From the IMG/VR virus record IMGVR_UViG_3300020463_003402: a DNA stretch of 64,000 nt. One strand, given 5' to 3'. The first letter of the stretch is position 1; every line of letters starts with the position of its first letter. A model generated the notes under the pieces. It made no database searches and was not told where the DNA came from. It saw only the letters and a program-made list of their open reading frames with translations. A program made the position numbers and the translations under genes. Shown piece after piece: positions 15,349-53,695 of this stretch. The stretch is from an uncultured virus (IMG/VR IMGVR_UViG_3300020463_003402). Lineage: Duplodnaviria > Heunggongvirae > Uroviricota > Caudoviricetes.

Positions 15349-15833
15349 ATTATTACCGTACTAAATTCGGGCTGGATATATCTGCGTGGGGGGAACTTAG
15401 TTTTATTACCGTCAGAAAGCCTTCTTAACTGAAGGGTGAGAATAGACGAGCTAATATTACTAGGGTGAGAAACATAAAAAACGTGGCGAGACGTTAGAGA
15501 GCCACCTTTTTCGTGAGGAAGTGCTTTGTAGCGTGTCACCACCGAATCTTCTAACAAGCCTTGGTTTAGATAATAACTGTATAGCCCCCCCTCGTTGGGG
15601 AGTGATAGGCTAGGACGGTTCTTCTCTCCGGTGGATTTATTGGATATACCAGAGACTTTAAAAGGTGAATGTACCCATGTGGAACCATTCCAGTCACGGG
15701 TTTCTCTATCCGTAAGACGAATAATAACCGGCTGACCATCGGTGTCTTCGATAATGATTTCTAAATAGGTGGTTAAGTCTTCAGGGGTCAGCGAATGCCG
15801 TTGAGACTGAATTTCTTGTGAAAGTTCTTTCAT
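15345..15833 (-). CDS. Minor tail protein (lambda gpL-like)
   Basis: PFKVSGIS..GEKNRPSLSL; synteny; ATG abuts GGAAATTGACG. Confidence 0.7.
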   Translation of the reverse strand: MKELSQEIQSQRHSLTPEDLTTYLEIIIEDTDGQPVIIRLTDRETRDWNGSTWVHSPFKVSGISNKSTGEKNRPSLSLPNEGGLYSYYLNQGLLEDSVVTRYKALPHEKGGSLTSRHVFYVSHPSNISSSILTLQLRRLSDGNKTKFPPRRYIQPEFSTVII

Positions 15834-15902
15834 CGTCAATTTCCCTCAATTTTCGCCTAGTATACCGAAAAGAGGAATAGATTGAATATTTTTCAAGCGC
15901 CC

Positions 15903-15935
15903 AAAAACAGAACACCCCAGCAAGGCTGAGGCGTT
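15903..15935 (-). terminator. Intrinsic terminator of the candidate sRNA
   Basis: AACGCCUCAGC-cuu-GCUGGGGUGUU stem followed by CUGUUUUU. Confidence 0.7.
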
Positions 15936-15981
15936 GATTTGGAAATTGACGATAATTAGGAGCCACATGGACTACTAACCG
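15903..15981 (-). ncRNA. Candidate ~80-nt trans-acting antisense sRNA complementary to the genome-wide start-associated motif
   Basis: Own promoter and terminator; contains CUCCUAAUUAUCGUCAAUUUCCAAAU, the reverse complement of ATTTGGAAATTGACGATAATTAGGAG. Confidence 0.7.
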
Positions 15982-15987
15982 AGGTCA

Positions 15988-16016
15988 ATACTACGGACTC
16001 ACAATTTTATTGTCAA
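15988..16016 (-). promoter_or_regulatory. Sigma70 promoter of the candidate sRNA
   Basis: TTGACA-17bp-TAGTAT with an AT-rich UP-like tract at 16017-16050. Confidence 0.75.
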
Positions 16017-16053
16017 TAATATTGTTTAAATTAATTAATAAATATTTTATCAA

Positions 16054-16440
16054 TTAAAGTCCTACCTCACGCAACGTAATAGTAAAAGGTTCAATAGCGC
16101 CATCCCCCCCTGTAATACCTTCCGGTAGCTCAAGGGGTTGGTCAAACCTTACCACGACATTCCCGAATTTGTGGTGTTGAAAAATAAACTCTTTCCAAGT
16201 TTCGTGACGTTGGTAAAACTCATCCAAATGATCAGCACTATACCGACGTTCCTTTGGACCTAGAAGTTGGGGATTTTCAAAATATTTCATTACTGAATAT
16301 TTCAATGTAAATATCCTGCTAACAGGGGCCGTAGGCTTAGTTACATAGTCCCATTGATTACCTAAGGTCAACTTAGTTGAGCGGTCCCTATAACGATGAG
16401 AGACCTTATGGTAAATAAAATTAAACTGTTCCAATGACAT
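16054..16440 (-). CDS. Distal/minor tail protein (lambda gpM-like)
   Basis: After the tape measure gene; LDEFYQRH..WKEFIF; size. Confidence 0.7.
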   Translation of the reverse strand: MSLEQFNFIYHKVSHRYRDRSTKLTLGNQWDYVTKPTAPVSRIFTLKYSVMKYFENPQLLGPKERRYSADHLDEFYQRHETWKEFIFQHHKFGNVVVRFDQPLELPEGITGGDGAIEPFTITLREVGL

Positions 16441-32969: not shown

Positions 32970-33458
32970 ATGAAAACACCCAAGTTCTATCCTGAGTTCA
33001 CCCCGAACCTTTTCACAACGCTGAATACGTGGAAAAAACTAATTCAAGACGACCCAACCTACCTCGACGATGAAGACTGCCCTTACGAGCCCAACGAGAT
33101 AGAATTCCTTACTGCGCTTTTTAGCATTCAAACCGACGCTGGCATAACCGTTGCAGACTCAGAAATAGAGGATTTAGAGTCTATTCCAGATTTCGAGACG
33201 GAAGCGTTGCAACTGTATCGAGATATGAAAACCTTCAAAAACTCGCTCAACCACGGGGACACAAGCGAAATGACCAGTACGTTTCGTACCATGGTGTCAC
33301 TGATGGAAAAAATCCTCGATGTTCAAGAACGGGCCTCAGGTATAAAACAATTTGGTGTATTCAAAACGTTTATCCTCGATAGCATGGAGCGCTATCTAAC
33401 ACCGCAGCAAAAAACTGAGTTTATCGACGAAATGCAACTCGTACTTAATCAGGAGTAA
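32970..33458 (+). CDS. Hypothetical helical protein (possible terminase small subunit), divergent from terL
   Basis: ORF with GGAGATTGACG-ATG start; function inferred from position only. Confidence 0.5.
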   Translation: MKTPKFYPEFTPNLFTTLNTWKKLIQDDPTYLDDEDCPYEPNEIEFLTALFSIQTDAGITVADSEIEDLESIPDFETEALQLYRDMKTFKNSLNHGDTSEMTSTFRTMVSLMEKILDVQERASGIKQFGVFKTFILDSMERYLTPQQKTEFIDEMQLVLNQE

Positions 33459-33462
33459 CCGC

Positions 33463-35970
33463 ATGTATAGTTTATTATCGAAAGCCTTATTTGCTGTGGG
33501 TGTGCCAACGATTCCGTTGTTTAAAACTTCAAAGCTCCCCGCTATCCCCAGTGACAAAATCCAGCAAGCCACCCAGGAGTTACACCAAAAGAATTGGCAA
33601 GCGACACATGCGGATAAGCTTTGTGGCGTGGCTTTAGGTCAGGCCCTCAAAGACGAGAGTGAGTATTGTCTTGTTGCGGTAAGGCTCGATCATAAACAAT
33701 CCGATTTAAAGCTTTCACTTTCGCATAAGCTTCCTTCAAGCTTTTGGCTGGTCTCTGAATCAAATAGTCACTACATGATTTTTAAAGCGCCGGCACCTTC
33801 GCCTTGTAGTGAATCATTAAAATCATTCGCGGTTCTTGGCTCTGGCCTCGAGGGACGGTTGCTTTCATTCTTGGCGGAAGACGCGTTTGTGGTACTGAGC
33901 TCACCAACTCAGGTACCGACCAAAGACGTCGTAGATAACTTACCGGTATTTGAACCACACCACATCATGGATGTGTTGCAGGAGATTATGCCGGATGTGG
34001 AGTTTCAAAAAGAGCCATATCAGCACGAAGCAAGGACAAAATTACACACTCTCGGCCAATTGGACGTAACTATGCGCTCTTACCTGACGCATTTTTGCTA
34101 CGATTTTTTACTAAATTGCGACCAAAACACGTACCTTTTGCCCGTTTTGCAAGAAATTGACGCACTTTATGACAGTTTTTCGCAGAATTTTGCCGAAATA
34201 CCACCAAATCATCAAAAAGACGCCTATTTCCAGACCTTCTACTCACTTATCCACCAAGTGCGTATGTATTACAACCTTCGCCTTCCGCCCCACTGGGACG
34301 TCAATATTGGCTCTAATTTAAGGGACAGATACGCGATTCCGTTCACCTCTAAAGACGCGCAATACACCTATCAAGGCCTTCAGAAGTACGTTTACGATAA
34401 AATGTCCGATGCCATAGGCAACGAAACCCAAATGTTGAGTGCATGCCAGTCGGCCATGGAAGAAATCGCACGCTCATTCACGGTAACCAAACTTGAAGTA
34501 GACCAGCTCAAGCGATATATCTCGCGACAGTCTGGGATGAAGCTAAACATGACGAAGATGGATAGTCAGATAACCAACCTAAGGAAGCAAGCGCGAGGCG
34601 TGATAGACCTACCTGCCATCGTGTCTATCGTCACACAGTTTCTCTCAAGTCAAACCGAGCATCGCTATGATGCGGCCATCGACGCCCAGAGATTATGTCG
34701 CTGGATAGGCACGCATTGGGAACCAGTAGAAGACCATGAAATAAGCCATATCATCAACACCTACTTTCCCTCGAACTTCACAGACAAGGGTACGCGTAAC
34801 ACCAATACGATTATTACGGCCATCAAAAATAAACTGGCCCTGCCCCTTCGACGCGTCAATTCTGTAGGTGTGAACTTCAACAACGGGTTTGTAAATTCCC
34901 AACTTCAACTATTACCCCACGACCCAGATATGGGGCTAACGTATACGTTGCCATTTACATTCAACCCAGACCAAGTTTACCCACCGGAAAAGCTATATAA
35001 ATTTATCACCCAGATTTGGACCTCAGACGACGAGAGCGATAACATTATGGCTTTGCAAGAAGCGATGGCCGCGACGTTCTTCAACACCGGTACACTTTTC
35101 CAACGGGCCATCCTACTTCACGGCACGCCAAAATCAGGAAAGAGCCAGATACTCAATATCATTCGCGGTCTGGTACCACCACAAAAGCGCGTTTCACTCC
35201 CACCCAACAAGTGGGGAGATAACGACGCGCTGGCCGCGCTATCGAATAAACTACTAAACCTGTGTGGCGAACTCTCTGAAAACGAACCTATCAACAGCCA
35301 GCGCTTCAAAGATATTGTTGATGGCCAAGAAGTCACGCTTAAGCGAAACATCAACCAACATAACACCCTGCAACCGATGGCTACACATTGGTTCGCCTCA
35401 AACCATCTGCCAAAAACTAAAGATTTCTCCGAAGGATTTACTCGACGCTGGTTGATACTCAATACGGAAAGACCTATTCCCCCTGAAAATCGAGAGCTGG
35501 ATATTGGTAACAAAATTGTTGCCGAAGAAAAGGACAAGATTATCTCGTGGGCCTTACGCGCTTATCCGAGACTGGTCAACAATCGCGACTACACTTTACC
35601 CGACTCACATCATGAGCTCGTGCGCCAGCTCGGACAGATGAATAATAACGTTCGATACTTCTTCGAAGCCTCTGGGTATATTGAATTGTCTGATGATTCT
35701 ATGATAGCGGTGCTTAAATCCCTACCAAAAGACGAGTTGATTGATGAGCTTAAGTCGCTCCCCTCTATAGCGGGTAGGGATTTATATACACTCTACGCCG
35801 CATCTGTTCGCGAATTTAAAAACGGGGCTGTCGTGGATGAAGGTGAATTCTATCGTCGAACCAAAGAGCTCAGTACGCTTTATCAGTTTCTCCAAGTCGT
35901 GGGACGCGATTCGAAAAACCGATTAGTTATTCAGTATTATGGACTGAACATTCAATTAAACGCTCATTAA
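33463..35970 (+). CDS. D5/P4-family primase-helicase (SF3 helicase)
   Basis: NFNNG (D5_N), HGTPKSGKS Walker A, ASNHLP, GFTRRWLIL. Confidence 0.85.
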   Translation: MYSLLSKALFAVGVPTIPLFKTSKLPAIPSDKIQQATQELHQKNWQATHADKLCGVALGQALKDESEYCLVAVRLDHKQSDLKLSLSHKLPSSFWLVSESNSHYMIFKAPAPSPCSESLKSFAVLGSGLEGRLLSFLAEDAFVVLSSPTQVPTKDVVDNLPVFEPHHIMDVLQEIMPDVEFQKEPYQHEARTKLHTLGQLDVTMRSYLTHFCYDFLLNCDQNTYLLPVLQEIDALYDSFSQNFAEIPPNHQKDAYFQTFYSLIHQVRMYYNLRLPPHWDVNIGSNLRDRYAIPFTSKDAQYTYQGLQKYVYDKMSDAIGNETQMLSACQSAMEEIARSFTVTKLEVDQLKRYISRQSGMKLNMTKMDSQITNLRKQARGVIDLPAIVSIVTQFLSSQTEHRYDAAIDAQRLCRWIGTHWEPVEDHEISHIINTYFPSNFTDKGTRNTNTIITAIKNKLALPLRRVNSVGVNFNNGFVNSQLQLLPHDPDMGLTYTLPFTFNPDQVYPPEKLYKFITQIWTSDDESDNIMALQEAMAATFFNTGTLFQRAILLHGTPKSGKSQILNIIRGLVPPQKRVSLPPNKWGDNDALAALSNKLLNLCGELSENEPINSQRFKDIVDGQEVTLKRNINQHNTLQPMATHWFASNHLPKTKDFSEGFTRRWLILNTERPIPPENRELDIGNKIVAEEKDKIISWALRAYPRLVNNRDYTLPDSHHELVRQLGQMNNNVRYFFEASGYIELSDDSMIAVLKSLPKDELIDELKSLPSIAGRDLYTLYAASVREFKNGAVVDEGEFYRRTKELSTLYQFLQVVGRDSKNRLVIQYYGLNIQLNAH

Positions 35971-36089
35971 TCAATCAGGCATAACCTTAGGCGAAAAAAT
36001 TTTTAAAAATTTTTTCGCCTTTTTTACGTTTCTTTGCACACACTGACAATGTGTGTAAGTGCTTTCAAGTGACGAACTTTTCCAGCTAC

Positions 36090-36114
36090 AAAAACACAAT
36101 TTTATTGTGTCTTT
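36090..36114. promoter_or_regulatory. Operator-like palindrome AAAAACACAA-N5-TTGTGTCTTT
   Basis: Near-identical to the perfect palindrome at 53671-53695. Confidence 0.55.
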
Positions 36115-36229
36115 TATTTCAGAAATACGACAACAAAAGCCCTCGTGATTTAACACTTATATAACAGAATATAAGGTCTGCCACCGGTTTACTTACTTGA
36201 CCAATCAAGGAGATTTTTATACTTTAGTT

Positions 36230-36429
36230 GGCGTTGACAGCAAACAGCTTACATGCCTCAACCGCGGGAGCCAGCGCTCCTTACAATTTGGAAATTGACG
36301 ATAAAGCCTGTTCTAATCTTTGTGCCCGTCCGCATACCTAGTTTCAAGCTTATCCTACGAACAACGACCTCTGATTACGTTGAACGTCTCAAACCCCGAG
36401 TGGCTATAATCCCTCGGGGTTTTCTTTTT
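36230..36429 (+). ncRNA. Candidate ~200-nt non-coding (sponge-like) RNA carrying a 19-nt perfect target of the sRNA
   Basis: TTGACC..TATACT upstream (short 15-bp spacer); ATTTGGAAATTGACGATAA at 36286-36304 with no start codon after it; terminator at 36391-36429. Confidence 0.45.
36391..36429 (+). terminator. Intrinsic terminator
   Basis: AAACCCCGAG..CTCGGGGTTTTCTTTTT. Confidence 0.75.
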
Positions 36430-36431
36430 GG

Positions 36432-36537
36432 CCTAGGTTCTCGGGTCGAGGTTCTCGGGTAAAGTTTCTAGTTTCCCGGGTCGAGGTTCTAGGTTCTCGG
36501 GTCTAGGGTCGCGGTTCTATGTTTGAGGGTCGAGGGT
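36432..36537. repeat. Degenerate short direct repeats (GTTCTCGGGT / GGTCGAGG / CTAG units)
   Basis: Visible tandem degenerate units in non-coding DNA. Confidence 0.7.
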
Positions 36538-36734
36538 AGTATCTATAACCTTCCAAAATTCCAAAAATTTTTCATGTGGAGTGAGAGGGCCACCCCACTA
36601 TATCACCCCATTTTCTTGCATAAAATCCACCCCCCCTTTTATAGTGAATGCAACTCGGGACACGTACCACTTAACACGGCTCGAGGGGGGAACATTCCCC
36701 CACCAACAAATTAACTTTTAAGGAATTGACGATT

Positions 36735-37454
36735 ATGACTACTGCTACCACTTTCAATGCTTCTGTTTTTGCTTCTGCTCTTGTTACCGCTGATAAGAAT
36801 GATCTACGTGTGCCAGCCGTGAAAATGGCTATTGCGTGCTATGCCGTAGCGCACAACATGGAACAAGGTGCAAACATCGCGCTTTGTTGTGACTTGTACG
36901 GCGTGCCAGCTAACCAACGTACAAAAGCCAACCGCGACAGCTCACGCCTATACAACCAAGCAAAAGGTTACTGGAAAACATACGTGAAATTCGTAAATGA
37001 TAACCGTCAATATCTAACCAAGTTTTTCGACTCAATCAAAACGATCGAGTTAAATGGCACCTTTGCGCAAATCGGTGACAAGGTATTAAACGCGGATATT
37101 TACGGCGAAAACGGTGCTCCTCAAGGGCGCGTTGAATGGCTTAACTTTTTAGGTGAATACTTGCCTAAAGAAGCGAAAGAAGAAAAGCCAAGCAAAGACG
37201 CGAAAAGCACGCCTGTAAAGGGCAAAGATAAGGAAGGTGGCGCAGCAAAACGCGCGGCTGATGATAATGTATCTAGCGCGGTAATGGCTCTTGTTTCTAA
37301 GCTTGAGGATCACACACAAGCGCTAATCAATAACCAACTTGAAGCGCTAGACGCGGCCGGTTTACCTAAGGCTCACCGCGCCAAGGTTAGCAAAGCAATG
37401 CTTGCCCTATCGCTTGAGATTCAAAAGGATCTCGAAAAGCAACTTAATAAGTAA
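36735..37454 (+). CDS. Hypothetical early protein
   Basis: ORF after palindrome and start motif; followed by a terminator. Confidence 0.75.
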   Translation: MTTATTFNASVFASALVTADKNDLRVPAVKMAIACYAVAHNMEQGANIALCCDLYGVPANQRTKANRDSSRLYNQAKGYWKTYVKFVNDNRQYLTKFFDSIKTIELNGTFAQIGDKVLNADIYGENGAPQGRVEWLNFLGEYLPKEAKEEKPSKDAKSTPVKGKDKEGGAAKRAADDNVSSAVMALVSKLEDHTQALINNQLEALDAAGLPKAHRAKVSKAMLALSLEIQKDLEKQLNK

Positions 37455-37500
37455 GCCCAGCGGGACGGGGGGAACATTCCCCCCCTCAATTCGAGAAACG

Positions 37501-37538
37501 AAAAACCGATTAGCACGGCTAGTGCTAATCGGTTTTTT
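37501..37538 (+). terminator. Intrinsic terminator (bidirectional)
   Basis: AAAAACCGATTAGCAC-ggcta-GTGCTAATCGGTTTTTT. Confidence 0.85.
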
Positions 37539-37574
37539 ATTTTTCGCGAGGCTATTAAGCGCGTGCCTACCTAT

Positions 37575-37990
37575 GCTGGTGGTGTGTGCCAGTGCCTAGG
37601 CTCTCGTGTCTAGGGGCTTGGCTGGTGGATTGTGATAGCAATTCGCGTGAAGGGAATTTGGGCAACTACAGGGCCGTGACTGTCGCGGCGATTTTAGGGG
37701 GGAACATTCCCCCCCAGATACAAGGAAATTGATGATGATTACACGTACAGATATTGCTTTATTTATCGCGTTTATGGTGCATTTTATGCTGCTGGTGGCT
37801 GGGTTCACGGTACTCATTACGAGTGCCAATGGTCTGGGCTTAATTGAGGTATCGAGTTACGCCAGTGTGCCGTTGTTTTTGATCTCCGTAGCGACCCTCA
37901 AAGCAGAGACTCTAGACAGAAGAAGTAATTTTCGGCTGGTGGAAGTGCGCTTTCATTCTAAAAAATAGAATCTAGAATCGAGGCTGGTGG
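37575..37990 (+). other. Cluster of five Chi octamers GCTGGTGG
   Basis: At 37575, 37621, 37791, 37935 and 37983, all in the same orientation. Confidence 0.75.
37735..37968 (+). CDS. Small membrane protein
   Basis: Hydrophobic; start motif variant GGAAATTGATGATG. Confidence 0.5.
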   Translation: MITRTDIALFIAFMVHFMLLVAGFTVLITSANGLGLIEVSSYASVPLFLISVATLKAETLDRRSNFRLVEVRFHSKK

Positions 37991-38288
37991 TTTTTAGTTC
38001 GAGGAAAAAGGACAAAAAATTCGAATCGAGGGTTGACAGCGCGGAAATAGGAGCAGCGCCGATTCCGACCCTCAAGCCTCTCTTCAAGCTTCTCGCATGA
38101 GAATATAGGACCTCTACAAGGGTCGTGTAAAGTATTTTAAGGCCACAGGTATTCGCCTTAACCTCAAAACCGAGCCCAATTTAAGGGCTTCAAGGGGGAA
38201 CATTCTCCCCTATTTTAGGACAAATTAAGAGGCTTCAGGGGGGAACATTCTCCCCCATATTTGAGCACATTTTGACAGGAAATTGACG

Positions 38289-38597
38289 ATGGAATTTAAC
38301 AACGTTTCGATACGATTTGGCTGGCATAAGCCGGTGGTTGTCCTCCAATATGGCACGCTGCAATACGAGATTGGCACGCTAGAATTGAAAGGTGTGACAC
38401 TCATGGAATTGGGAAATTTAGACCCAGAACACGTAGCCAAGCATCACCAAATGTTGTTGATTTGTGAAATGAGCACAACAATTAGACTCGCGCAAAAGGA
38501 TATTCCAGAGCCAGTTAACACCTGTTCCCGTAAACTTTTTGACGAAACGGGTGTAGAACCCTCAAAAGTCACACACAAGCCCAACTTAAGTGCTTAA
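38289..38597 (+). CDS. Hypothetical protein
   Basis: GGAAATTGACG-ATG start. Confidence 0.6.
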   Translation: MEFNNVSIRFGWHKPVVVLQYGTLQYEIGTLELKGVTLMELGNLDPEHVAKHHQMLLICEMSTTIRLAQKDIPEPVNTCSRKLFDETGVEPSKVTHKPNLSA

Positions 38598-38834
38598 ATA
38601 CAATAACTTAAGTTTTGTGTTCCCATAAACTTTCTAGGCCATTTTTCGCAAATTGTGAAACGGTAGAATGCGGCCTGTAGCTGTGCGAATTTTGACCAGT
38701 TACGCGTAACTTCGGTGAGGGTAATTATTACTCGCAATGCCGTGGGTAACAAGGGCTTCAGAGCCGGTGACAAAAATGTTCCCACAAACTTTCGTTATTA
38801 AATGTACATTTATATATTTTACTGGGAACATTTT
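38523..38834. repeat. Iteron-like repeats TGTTCCCRYAAACTTT (3 direct, 1 partial inverted) beside an AT-rich tract
   Basis: 38523, 38618 and 38777 direct; TTTACTGGGAACA inverted at ~38818. Confidence 0.6.
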
Positions 38835-39094
38835 TTAAGAAGTATACTTTTAAAAACTTCGCTTTCGATTTAATTCGTACCTGAGGTTTATTTACACACA
38901 ATGTCCTCGTTACTCCTTGTGACTTGCTGCGAGTCGCAGTGATCTACCTAACGACCTTTGTGTGACGACCTGTTAGCTCTGCGTGATAAGAATTTGAATT
39001 CACTTGTGGTCTTCACTGTCGCAACGTGCAACAAACCACCGCGAAAGTGAATCACACCCAAATTGTGTTTTTGGTCGAAATAAGACCATTGCGA

Positions 39095-52468: not shown

Positions 52469-52493
52469 AAAAGAGCGGCTAAGCCGCTCTTTT
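52469..52493. terminator. Bidirectional intrinsic terminator
   Basis: AAAAGAGCGGC-taa-GCCGCTCTTTT between convergent genes. Confidence 0.85.
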
Positions 52494-53237
52494 AAATAGT
52501 ACTTCCAATTTTCTAGGTATGGACCCTGCGAGGTCCTTGACGTAGAACTCTTGAATACTCGCGTGGAACAACAACATAAGAAACATAATAGTCTGGGTAA
52601 TAAACACGATATTAAACAGGAAATAGAAGCTCGGTAAGTGTAGCGCGTACTCAATATCAACGAGGCGATAATCATAAAGTAGTGGGCCTGTCTCATGAAT
52701 ACCAAAATGTATCGTGAATATGTGGTAGTAAACCGCAATAGCAAAACAGATAAACCAGCACAACTTATAAACCATACATAACCATGTACCTAGGTTTGTG
52801 TCTTCAGTTTTATCCAGCAATTTGAATCCAGCTTCTCTAAATCTTTCAGACCTAATAAGTTGGTTCGCTACCCAAAACTGGAATTTAACCCGATATTGGT
52901 ACATCACCATGGTTAGAATACCTGGCACATAAATCATGGCAATAGCCGTATGAAGTGTCGGGCTTAAGCTAAACATTAGGCTGGCAATTGCCTGTTCGGA
53001 TATTGAAGCAATTATGATCAAAGCCAAAACGATACGGTTATTGAAACCCTTAACCATTACGCCAGCTAAGATTATGCATGAGAACATCACCGCGTAGTAG
53101 CTGATAATATCGGACAAAGAATACAGTTGCCATTTCCCTTCCACAAGGAAGTTGTTTAAAACAGCCGTAAAGATAAGTAGGGCCGTAACGAAAAACGCGA
53201 ACCGTAAGCCGTAGGTTTTAAAGAAGTGACGGTACAT
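52479..53237 (-). CDS. Polytopic membrane protein (~6 TM)
   Basis: Multiple hydrophobic helices; 4 bp downstream of the XRE gene. Confidence 0.8.
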   Translation of the reverse strand: MYRHFFKTYGLRFAFFVTALLIFTAVLNNFLVEGKWQLYSLSDIISYYAVMFSCIILAGVMVKGFNNRIVLALIIIASISEQAIASLMFSLSPTLHTAIAMIYVPGILTMVMYQYRVKFQFWVANQLIRSERFREAGFKLLDKTEDTNLGTWLCMVYKLCWFICFAIAVYYHIFTIHFGIHETGPLLYDYRLVDIEYALHLPSFYFLFNIVFITQTIMFLMLLFHASIQEFYVKDLAGSIPRKLEVLFKRAA

Positions 53238-53241
53238 AAAA

Positions 53242-53562
53242 TTACTCCCAAAACGTCGCTAAGAATCTTTTAAAATCCGAGAATGGGATATCCGATAAGG
53301 TAATTTTACTCACTACCGCACCGAGTCCCTTCTTCATGTGAGCGCGTTTTGCAATTTGTTGGTATTTGTAGAATTCTTCTGTGGAAATTTTGCCGTATCG
53401 CTCGGCATTTGAAATAGTATTCTTGTGAACGTCCGCAGCAATAGCGAGTTCTTCTTGCGTCAATCGATAGTTCTGGCGCATGTTTTTAAACTTTCGAGCT
53501 ATTCGCCTACGACGCTCTAGCTCCCATTGTGGTTCTATATTATCGTCAATTTTCTTAGACAC
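53242..53562 (-). CDS. XRE-family HTH transcriptional regulator
   Basis: LTQEELAIAADVHKNTISNAERYG. Confidence 0.85.
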   Translation of the reverse strand: MSKKIDDNIEPQWELERRRRIARKFKNMRQNYRLTQEELAIAADVHKNTISNAERYGKISTEEFYKYQQIAKRAHMKKGLGAVVSKITLSDIPFSDFKRFLATFWE

Positions 53563-53670: not shown

Positions 53671-53695
53671 AAAAACACAAATAAATTGTGTTTTT
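53671..53695. promoter_or_regulatory. Perfect operator-like palindrome AAAAACACAA-ATAAA-TTGTGTTTTT
   Basis: In the divergent XRE/ligase intergenic region, near TTGATA-17-TAGTTT. Confidence 0.65.

Follow-up and report, generated by a model that had tools for sequence, protein, structure and literature searches.

What is the function of a transcription unit that carries the sequence of a gene start and contains no gene? An earlier note on the DNA analysed here, a stretch of 64,000 nucleotides from an uncultured marine phage (the window), had proposed that such a unit at 36197-36429 makes a decoy RNA, which titrates a small RNA (sRNA) encoded by the same phage and thereby derepresses lytic genes. 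We asked whether the unit is an RNA gene in its own right, what its conserved elements are, and which reader of these elements best explains them.

The window covers most of one phage genome. The minus strand up to 32878 encodes structural and lysis proteins (terminase, portal, major head protein, tape measure, tail J-like protein, and endolysin), and the plus strand from 32964 encodes proteins of replication and DNA metabolism (primase with Prim-Pol and DUF5906 domains, RadC, methylases, ligase, helicase, and 5'-3' exonuclease). Relatives were gathered by way of the primase, which identified 10 viral loci with 72-98% amino acid identity, and by way of DNA patterns; together, these searches resulted in 12 distinct sequences that fall into six lineages, A to F. 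The scan with the promoter pattern of the unit contributed 17 viral loci, with 7 unrelated chance matches dropped, and the scan with a pattern composed of the box described below plus GTCTCAAACCC contributed 15 metagenome loci, with 4 unrelated ones dropped. The nearest relative, G001, comprises 81.4 kb with direct terminal repeats and is identical to the window at 95% of positions over 35950-36750 and at 100% over 15800-16100. A tyrosine integrase is encoded in all five relatives searched and the group is therefore temperate; the phage is a temperate marine siphovirus. The primases of cultured phages, for example Achromobacter phage JWF and Caulobacter phage Seuss, are only 28-36% identical. 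A metagenome-assembled genome (MAG) assigned to the Alteromonadaceae contains contigs that are 96-98% identical in primase, which is a weak hint at the host because it is based on MAG binning. A blastn search with 35900-36800 against 50,697 phage records returned no match, and the whole window gave 0 matches in Rfam 15 at gathering score. When Rfam was searched by E-value, the best matches of the decoy were to NsiR1 with 18.7 bits (gathering score 39; over the terminator) and to a frameshift site with 19.2 bits (gathering score 90).

The unit, which we call the decoy gene, has the following parts.

36197-36223, plus strand: promoter with TTGACC (36197-36202), a 15-nt spacer and TATACT (36218-36223); its block TATACTTTAGT is invariant
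about 36230-36429, plus strand: decoy RNA of about 200 nt, consisting of a variable 5' hairpin domain, the box, a middle region, the P3 hairpin and a terminator
36283-36287, plus strand: invariant ACAAT directly before the box, the same in 12 of 12 sequences
36286-36304, plus strand: ATTTGGAAATTGACGATAA, a perfect 19-nt complement of the sRNA seed, with the core GGAAATTGACGAT at 36290-36302
36357-36387, plus strand: P3 hairpin, in which ACGAACAACG pairs with CGTTGAACGT; two pairs are compensated in lineage E
36386-36429, plus strand: GTCTCAAACCC followed by an intrinsic terminator, with the stem 36391-36400 paired to 36413-36422 and a U-run to 36429

The promoter and the clear terminator that had been read from the window are both present, and the promoter recurs with its exact 15-nt spacing in all six lineages. 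A simple scanner missed the former, since it allowed spacers of 16-18 nt, and the latter with its 12-nt loop. Besides promoter and terminator, the six lineages have kept the stretch ACAAU-NN-GGAAAUyGACGA, a few short blocks and GUCUCAAACCC. The element GTCTCAAACCC before the terminator (36386-36396) is invariant in 12 of 12 sequences and unique in the window. The inner stem of the terminator differs between lineages A, E, and F yet remains paired. The 5' domain has been swapped for different hairpins among the lineages, and lineages C and D have insertions of 27-34 nt. Each of the 12 sequences has one copy of the box. Neither ACAAT (36283-36287) nor GTCTCAAACCC is complementary to the sRNA.

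We read about 36230-36429 on the plus strand as a stand-alone non-coding RNA gene. This agrees with the earlier note, which had set a non-coding unit against translation of a 69-amino-acid ORF. ORFs of 33, 37, and 69 amino acids do exist in the region, and a peptide could also be imagined to start from the AUA or AUU after the box. The longest of these ORFs (36253-36462) extends across the terminator; a 1-nt insertion shortens it to 29 amino acids in G001, which is 95% identical here, and the other lineages lack it. The 8 sequences compared from the six lineages have no ORF or peptide in common, and the box of lineage E is followed by GAACG. We therefore give the production of a small protein hardly any credence. 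It is also very improbable that the unit is a relic, that is, the functionless leader and ribosome-binding site of a gene that was lost. The box indeed looks just like a gene start and its flanks differ strongly between the lineages, but a relic would decay, and here six lineages, with primases as little as 72% identical, have all retained promoter, box and terminator and still lack a start codon.

We then considered the fold of the decoy RNA. The fold of the single sequence is no better than that of shuffled sequences (z -1.29; 23 of 200 shuffles equal), and RNAalifold predicted 13 pairs, 0 of them compensated. For the P3 helix together with the outer terminator, 85.6% of cells are paired, compared with 32-45% when the 3' partners are slid; two of these pairs change on both sides, both in lineage E, and the counts lean largely on this one divergent lineage. 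A pairing of 5' CGUUGA with UUGACG of the box, suggested by RNAalifold, was not adopted because it showed only one-sided changes. We also rejected a CsrA-type site, as there is one box only and lineage E disrupts a local CAAUU/AAUUG hairpin. The box has a predicted unpaired probability of 0.44-0.60, compared with 0.37-0.46 for the whole RNA, and is thus of about average openness. Two short stretches upstream of the box, GGCGTTGA (36230) and GGAGCCA (36267), had been taken for additional matches to the sRNA locus. Both are present but at chance level, with shuffles reaching a 7-mer match in 755 of 2000 cases (38%) and an 8-mer match in 215 of 2000 (11%), and neither has been kept in lineages C, E, and F, so we abandon this part of the earlier reading. 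As read from the sequence, in the lineage of the window the two stretches form the decoy's own P1 and P2 helices.

Is the unit transcribed? Four RNA-library runs were mapped as contigs onto 33000-39000. One contig in each of two runs from one study covers exactly 36233-36398, one of the two contigs representing the variant of the window and the other that of a relative, and a 438-nt contig in a run from another study spans 35991-36427. The -10 element predicts a start at about 36230, some 3 nt from the contig 5' end at 36233, and the 3' end at 36427 falls in the U-run of the terminator. The contigs match the predicted decoy transcript and are supportive, not conclusive, because they are strandless and carry-over of DNA is possible. 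Run X17 has no contig at 36000-36233 and 36398-36656, and such holes prove nothing. An apparent joint from 36303 to 38275 in the same run is not a real junction, as it reflects the box that the decoy has in common with another gene start, and the depth in the bin 36015-36215 is due to a contig from around 53.6 kb, where the operator repeat described below also occurs.

The element at the centre of the decoy recurs throughout the genome. The core 13-mer GGAAATTGACGAT has 37 copies in the window at up to 2 mismatches, compared with 1.9 expected; 100 shuffles gave at most 6. At 28 of the 37 copies an ATG abuts the box (offset -2 to +3) and opens an ORF of at least 40 amino acids on the coding strand. 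Some of the 37 positions are the following.

39173, 45586, 53779, 31068 and 21772: examples of box copies in the window

The box is found on the minus strand in the structural half of the window and on the plus strand in the early half. Its consensus is GGA(A/G)ATTGACGAT, with 8 positions invariant in all 28 gene starts, and it occurs in both the early and the structural module. Because the box adjoins the ATG of ORFs, we interpret it as a Shine-Dalgarno element (GGA[A/G]) with an invariant spacer. The decoy copy at 36290, unlike these 28, is followed by ATAAAG without an ATG at offsets -2 to +3, and the observation that no gene starts after the site thus stood up to a survey of all copies. 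Across the lineages the decoy box is followed by GAUAAAG, GAUUAC, or GAACG, and in none of the six by AUG. Eight further copies in the window are without an ATG; one of them lies at the sRNA locus, one in the first codons of an XRE gene (53554), and the other six are 2-mismatch copies. The Alteromonadaceae MAG (4.8 Mb), which holds phage contigs, contains 9 box copies only, 8 of which are on contigs that are phage or bear more than one box copy. The box is a real, phage-private gene-start tag. A literature search for its sequence matched only unrelated papers.

We next asked what could read this tag. The 19-mer of the decoy has 12 matches in the window at up to 3 mismatches, compared with 0.04 expected, and one other perfect copy, which lies at 15937-15955 on the plus strand and is therefore complementary to an RNA transcribed from the minus strand there. 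The perfect seed complement at 36286-36304 from which the earlier note had started is thus present as described. The locus around the second copy has these features.

15903-15981, minus strand: partner sRNA of about 79 nt with a 5' hairpin, the single-stranded seed UUAUCGUCAAUUUCCAAAU (15955-15937) and a terminator (15935-15911)
15988-16016, minus strand: promoter of the sRNA with TTGACA (16016), a 17-nt spacer and TAGTAT (15988); a palindrome lies between the hexamers

Together, these features make a minus-strand partner sRNA plausible. Its promoter is near-consensus with a score of 10/12. The predicted fold consists of the 5' hairpin, an open stretch of 18 nt with the anti-box (unpaired probability 0.955), and the terminator; overall, the seed has an unpaired probability of 0.93-0.96. 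The terminator stem contains a U-G pair, as read from the sequence, which on the other strand would be an A-C mismatch and thus fits transcription from the minus strand. Both stems of the sRNA are compensated in lineage E, where the locus is 82-83% identical; in G004-G006 the identity is 97-98%, and this is also where the decoy has large indels. The sRNA gene sits inside the tail-gene module and is much more conserved than its flanks. Each of the 7 genomes or long records that we examined (the window and G001-G006) carries both the decoy and the sRNA gene. Searches with two sRNA patterns gave an identical set of 13 viral loci and nothing in genome_contigs (0 loci); a lineage with a different seed was thus not among the matches. 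The sRNA locus had no match in Rfam, including none to c4.

How well does the decoy pair with this sRNA, compared with the gene starts? When the sRNA's own antisense is left out, the decoy ranks first of 36 possible sites in the window, with a 19-nt run and -25.7 kcal/mol. The next-best sites are real gene starts, with runs of 18 nt (53779) and 17 nt (45586, 48012) and -24.9 and -24.8 kcal/mol. The claim that the decoy has the longest target site is hence correct for the 37 copies of the window, but its margin is small and specific to the lineage: lineages A-C have a perfect run of 19 nt between decoy and seed, which falls to 16 nt in D and 12 nt in E. As the run shrinks in D and E and the gene starts are nearly equal, the conserved feature is the box of 12-13 nt and not the extra-long match. 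The predicted cofold gain of matched sRNA-decoy pairs was -17.7 to -22.1 kcal/mol in 6 of 6 cases, compared with means of -3.9 to -6.8 kcal/mol after shuffling of the box.

If the sRNA reads the box by base pairing, changes in the seed and in the boxes should be related. We scanned gene-start boxes in five genomes, which yielded 28, 34, 35, 34, and 21 instances. The seed of lineage E, AUCGUCGAUUUCC, has a G where the other lineages have an A, and the decoy of lineage E, GGAAAUCGACGA, has a C where lineages A-D have a U. Where the sRNA has an A (lineages A-D), 0 of 131 gene-start boxes have a C at position 7; where it has a G (lineage E), which pairs with both C and U, 9 of 21 do. The common box variant A4>G faces a U in the sRNA, and C10>U faces a G. 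Among internal substitutions in gene-start boxes of the five genomes, 50 of 59 keep Watson-Crick or G-U pairing with the cognate sRNA. The genomes do not provide independent counts, and the change at position 7 is one evolutionary event. Pairing between two RNAs would predict such a pattern, unlike a protein or a reader acting at the DNA level. In the lineage E genome G003, the C-variant of the box is mostly on structural-module genes (5 of 6 copies are on that strand) and the U-variant mostly on the early strand (12 of 14 copies, with the antisense of the sRNA locus and the decoy left out). With this division, the sRNA of lineage E would match late genes perfectly and early ones through a G-U wobble.

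The same data bear on the idea that a protein, such as a phage translational regulator, or the 30S subunit recognises the box, and that the decoy titrates this reader in the manner of CsrB and CsrA, with no role for the sRNA. With 8 positions constant in 28 of 28 gene starts and hardly any copies in the MAG of the presumed host, the tag needs a phage-specific reader, and the ACAAU that the decoy keeps before its box is left unpaired by the sRNA. On the other hand, the tolerated substitutions in the box obey pairing with the cognate sRNA, which would be unexpected for a protein, and the decoy has one site where sponges of the CsrB type have many. Moreover, no RNA-binding family was found by Pfam or PHROGs among 65 proteins scanned, most of which are without any family. 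We consider it unlikely that a protein or the ribosome is the reader.

The explanation to which we lean, with somewhat better than even confidence, is that the decoy acts as a sponge or target mimic of the sRNA and competes with about 30 gene starts. According to this model, the decoy RNA would display one copy of the private 13-nt translation-initiation box (GGAAAUUGACGAU), without a start codon, between structured domains, and the 79-nt sRNA would present the exact antisense of the box in its open seed. At about 30 phage genes, the sRNA most likely masks the Shine-Dalgarno element and the start, repressing translation. The decoy would compete with these gene starts for the sRNA and relieve the repression, so that the decoy level would determine the amount of sRNA free to act on them. 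Our analysis shows the anatomy of the sequence, its conservation, the joint change of box and seed, and the occurrence of the stretch in RNA libraries. From these we infer that the two RNAs pair in the cell, that the sRNA represses its targets and that the decoy relieves them, as well as the timing of these steps. Several properties count against a sponge. The decoy has a single site, its promoter has a poor 15-nt spacer, and its box is only average in predicted openness. With a single site and a poor spacer set against about 30 targets, titration would need a high level of decoy or a decay of the sRNA that is triggered by the decoy. In addition, pairing with the sRNA leaves the invariant ACAAU and GUCUCAAACCC unexplained.

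The surroundings of the decoy gene suggest another role for the RNA. Three features follow its terminator.

36433-36537: heptad repeat array (GGGTCGA / GGTTCTA) of about 14 units, directly 3' of the decoy terminator and outside the RNA
36540-36575: AT-rich stretch TTCCAAAATTCCAAAAATTTTTCA, directly beyond the heptad array
36616-36645: downstream promoter with TTGCAT (36616), an 18-nt spacer and TATAGT (36640)

The number of heptads differs between relatives and the array itself is kept. It lies downstream of the primase gene and is probably an iteron array or a replication origin. The decoy RNA could thus be a target with its own job at the adjacent repeats, for example in activating or priming an origin, and the sRNA would turn this job off by way of the box, similar to the antisense control of plasmid replication RNAs. 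The decoy gene lies between the primase gene and the array with its AT-rich stretch and is transcribed toward them, and it has conserved elements that are unrelated to the sRNA (ACAAU, the P3 hairpin, and GUCUCAAACCC). However, a strong intrinsic terminator precedes the array and ends the RNA before the repeats in every lineage, so that a run of the transcript into the origin as in ColE1 RNA II was not seen. Furthermore, nothing links the box to replication, and the assignment of the origin is itself an interpretation of the repeats. A function at the origin therefore seems improbable to us, and titration of the sRNA by the decoy remains our preferred explanation. We also considered an sRNA-controlled attenuator of the downstream operon and rejected it; no alternative partner for the terminator arm was seen, and the downstream gene has its own promoter.

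An operator-like palindrome had been reported upstream of the decoy gene. It is real, and it recurs at two other places in the window.

36095-36109: operator-like palindrome CACAATTTTATTGTG (CACAAT-N3-ATTGTG), about 95 bp upstream of the decoy -35 element; kept in relatives including lineage E
16000-16014: copy of the palindrome inside the sRNA promoter, between -35 and -10
53676-53690: copy of the palindrome in the divergent region next to the XRE gene
53245-53562, minus strand: XRE-type HTH regulator of 106 amino acids with a GTG start; Pfam HTH_3 with an E-value of 9e-5, just under the cut-off

The three palindrome sites share similar right flanks (TTGTG..G[T/C]AG). The copy at 36.1 kb faces the minus strand and could drive a short RNA that ends at the terminator hairpin of the primase gene. 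The XRE gene heads the sole minus-strand operon of the early region, together with 52479-53237 (minus strand). Within codons 3-8 it carries AAAATTGACGATAA, which is complementary to the sRNA seed over 14 nt and is kept in lineages A-D and absent in E. A wider scheme can be drawn from these elements, which we put forward tentatively and regard as rather doubtful: about 30 early and structural genes with one tag, one sRNA as its reader, and a decoy setting the free sRNA would form a global switch made of RNA only, and the shared operator palindrome with the XRE regulator would join them into a circuit of protein, sRNA and decoy that decides on translation of the whole genome.

Finally, we compared the decoy and its partner with known systems. 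In the literature available to us on sponges, phage decoys, and target mimics we found no system like this one, and the accessible parts of PMC12197685 describe no phage with box-tagged genes, an antisense sRNA, and a mimic that lacks a start codon; the sponges described there act on single host sRNAs. Known RNA antagonists that pair with a regulatory RNA, as the decoy would, are SroC, a sponge of GcvB (PMC4474525), SprY, a sponge of RNAIII (PMC12197685), and CJnc180, an antagonist of CJnc190 (PMC8687705). As far as the consulted sections of these sources go, they are derived from mRNAs, cis-antisense, or directed at the host, whereas the decoy is encoded in trans by a dedicated gene 20 kb away from that of the sRNA, with a separate promoter and terminator. 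The partner sRNA is similar to the c4 antisense RNA of phages P1 and P7, which, in the excerpt at hand, blocks translation by pairing around the ribosome-binding site of one operon, icd-ant (PMC12197685). Both are phage RNAs with a block of translation at a ribosome-binding site, which is a prediction for the sRNA of the window; according to the same excerpt c4 acts on one operon, and here the seed matches about 30 gene starts. A separate decoy gene is not known for c4. P1 presumably carries extra upstream copies of sites complementary to c4. CsrB and RsmZ are non-coding RNAs with many GGA hairpins that resemble ribosome-binding sites and draw a protein regulator off mRNAs. The decoy is like them in displaying a GGA element of this kind on a non-coding RNA, and unlike them it has a single 13-nt box, for which a complementary sRNA exists.

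If the model is true, tag, repressor RNA, and anti-repressor RNA would constitute a compact, portable three-part controller acting after transcription, and a new way for a temperate phage to gate translation across its entire genome. The tags, with their wobble-rule pattern, provide a direct, testable handle on such a system. The closest parallel is AgvB, a prophage-encoded anti-sRNA of enterohaemorrhagic E. coli that mimics mRNA targets of GcvB, as summarised in the available part of PMC12197685. There is no sequence relation between the two RNAs, and Rfam gave no match. Like AgvB in that account, the decoy is a phage-borne non-coding RNA that copies the mRNA site of an sRNA seed and would relieve repression by competition. 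AgvB, as presented there, is directed at an sRNA of the host core genome, whereas here the sRNA and its mimic are both phage genes, and the mimicked site is the gene-start tag shared across the phage's own genome.
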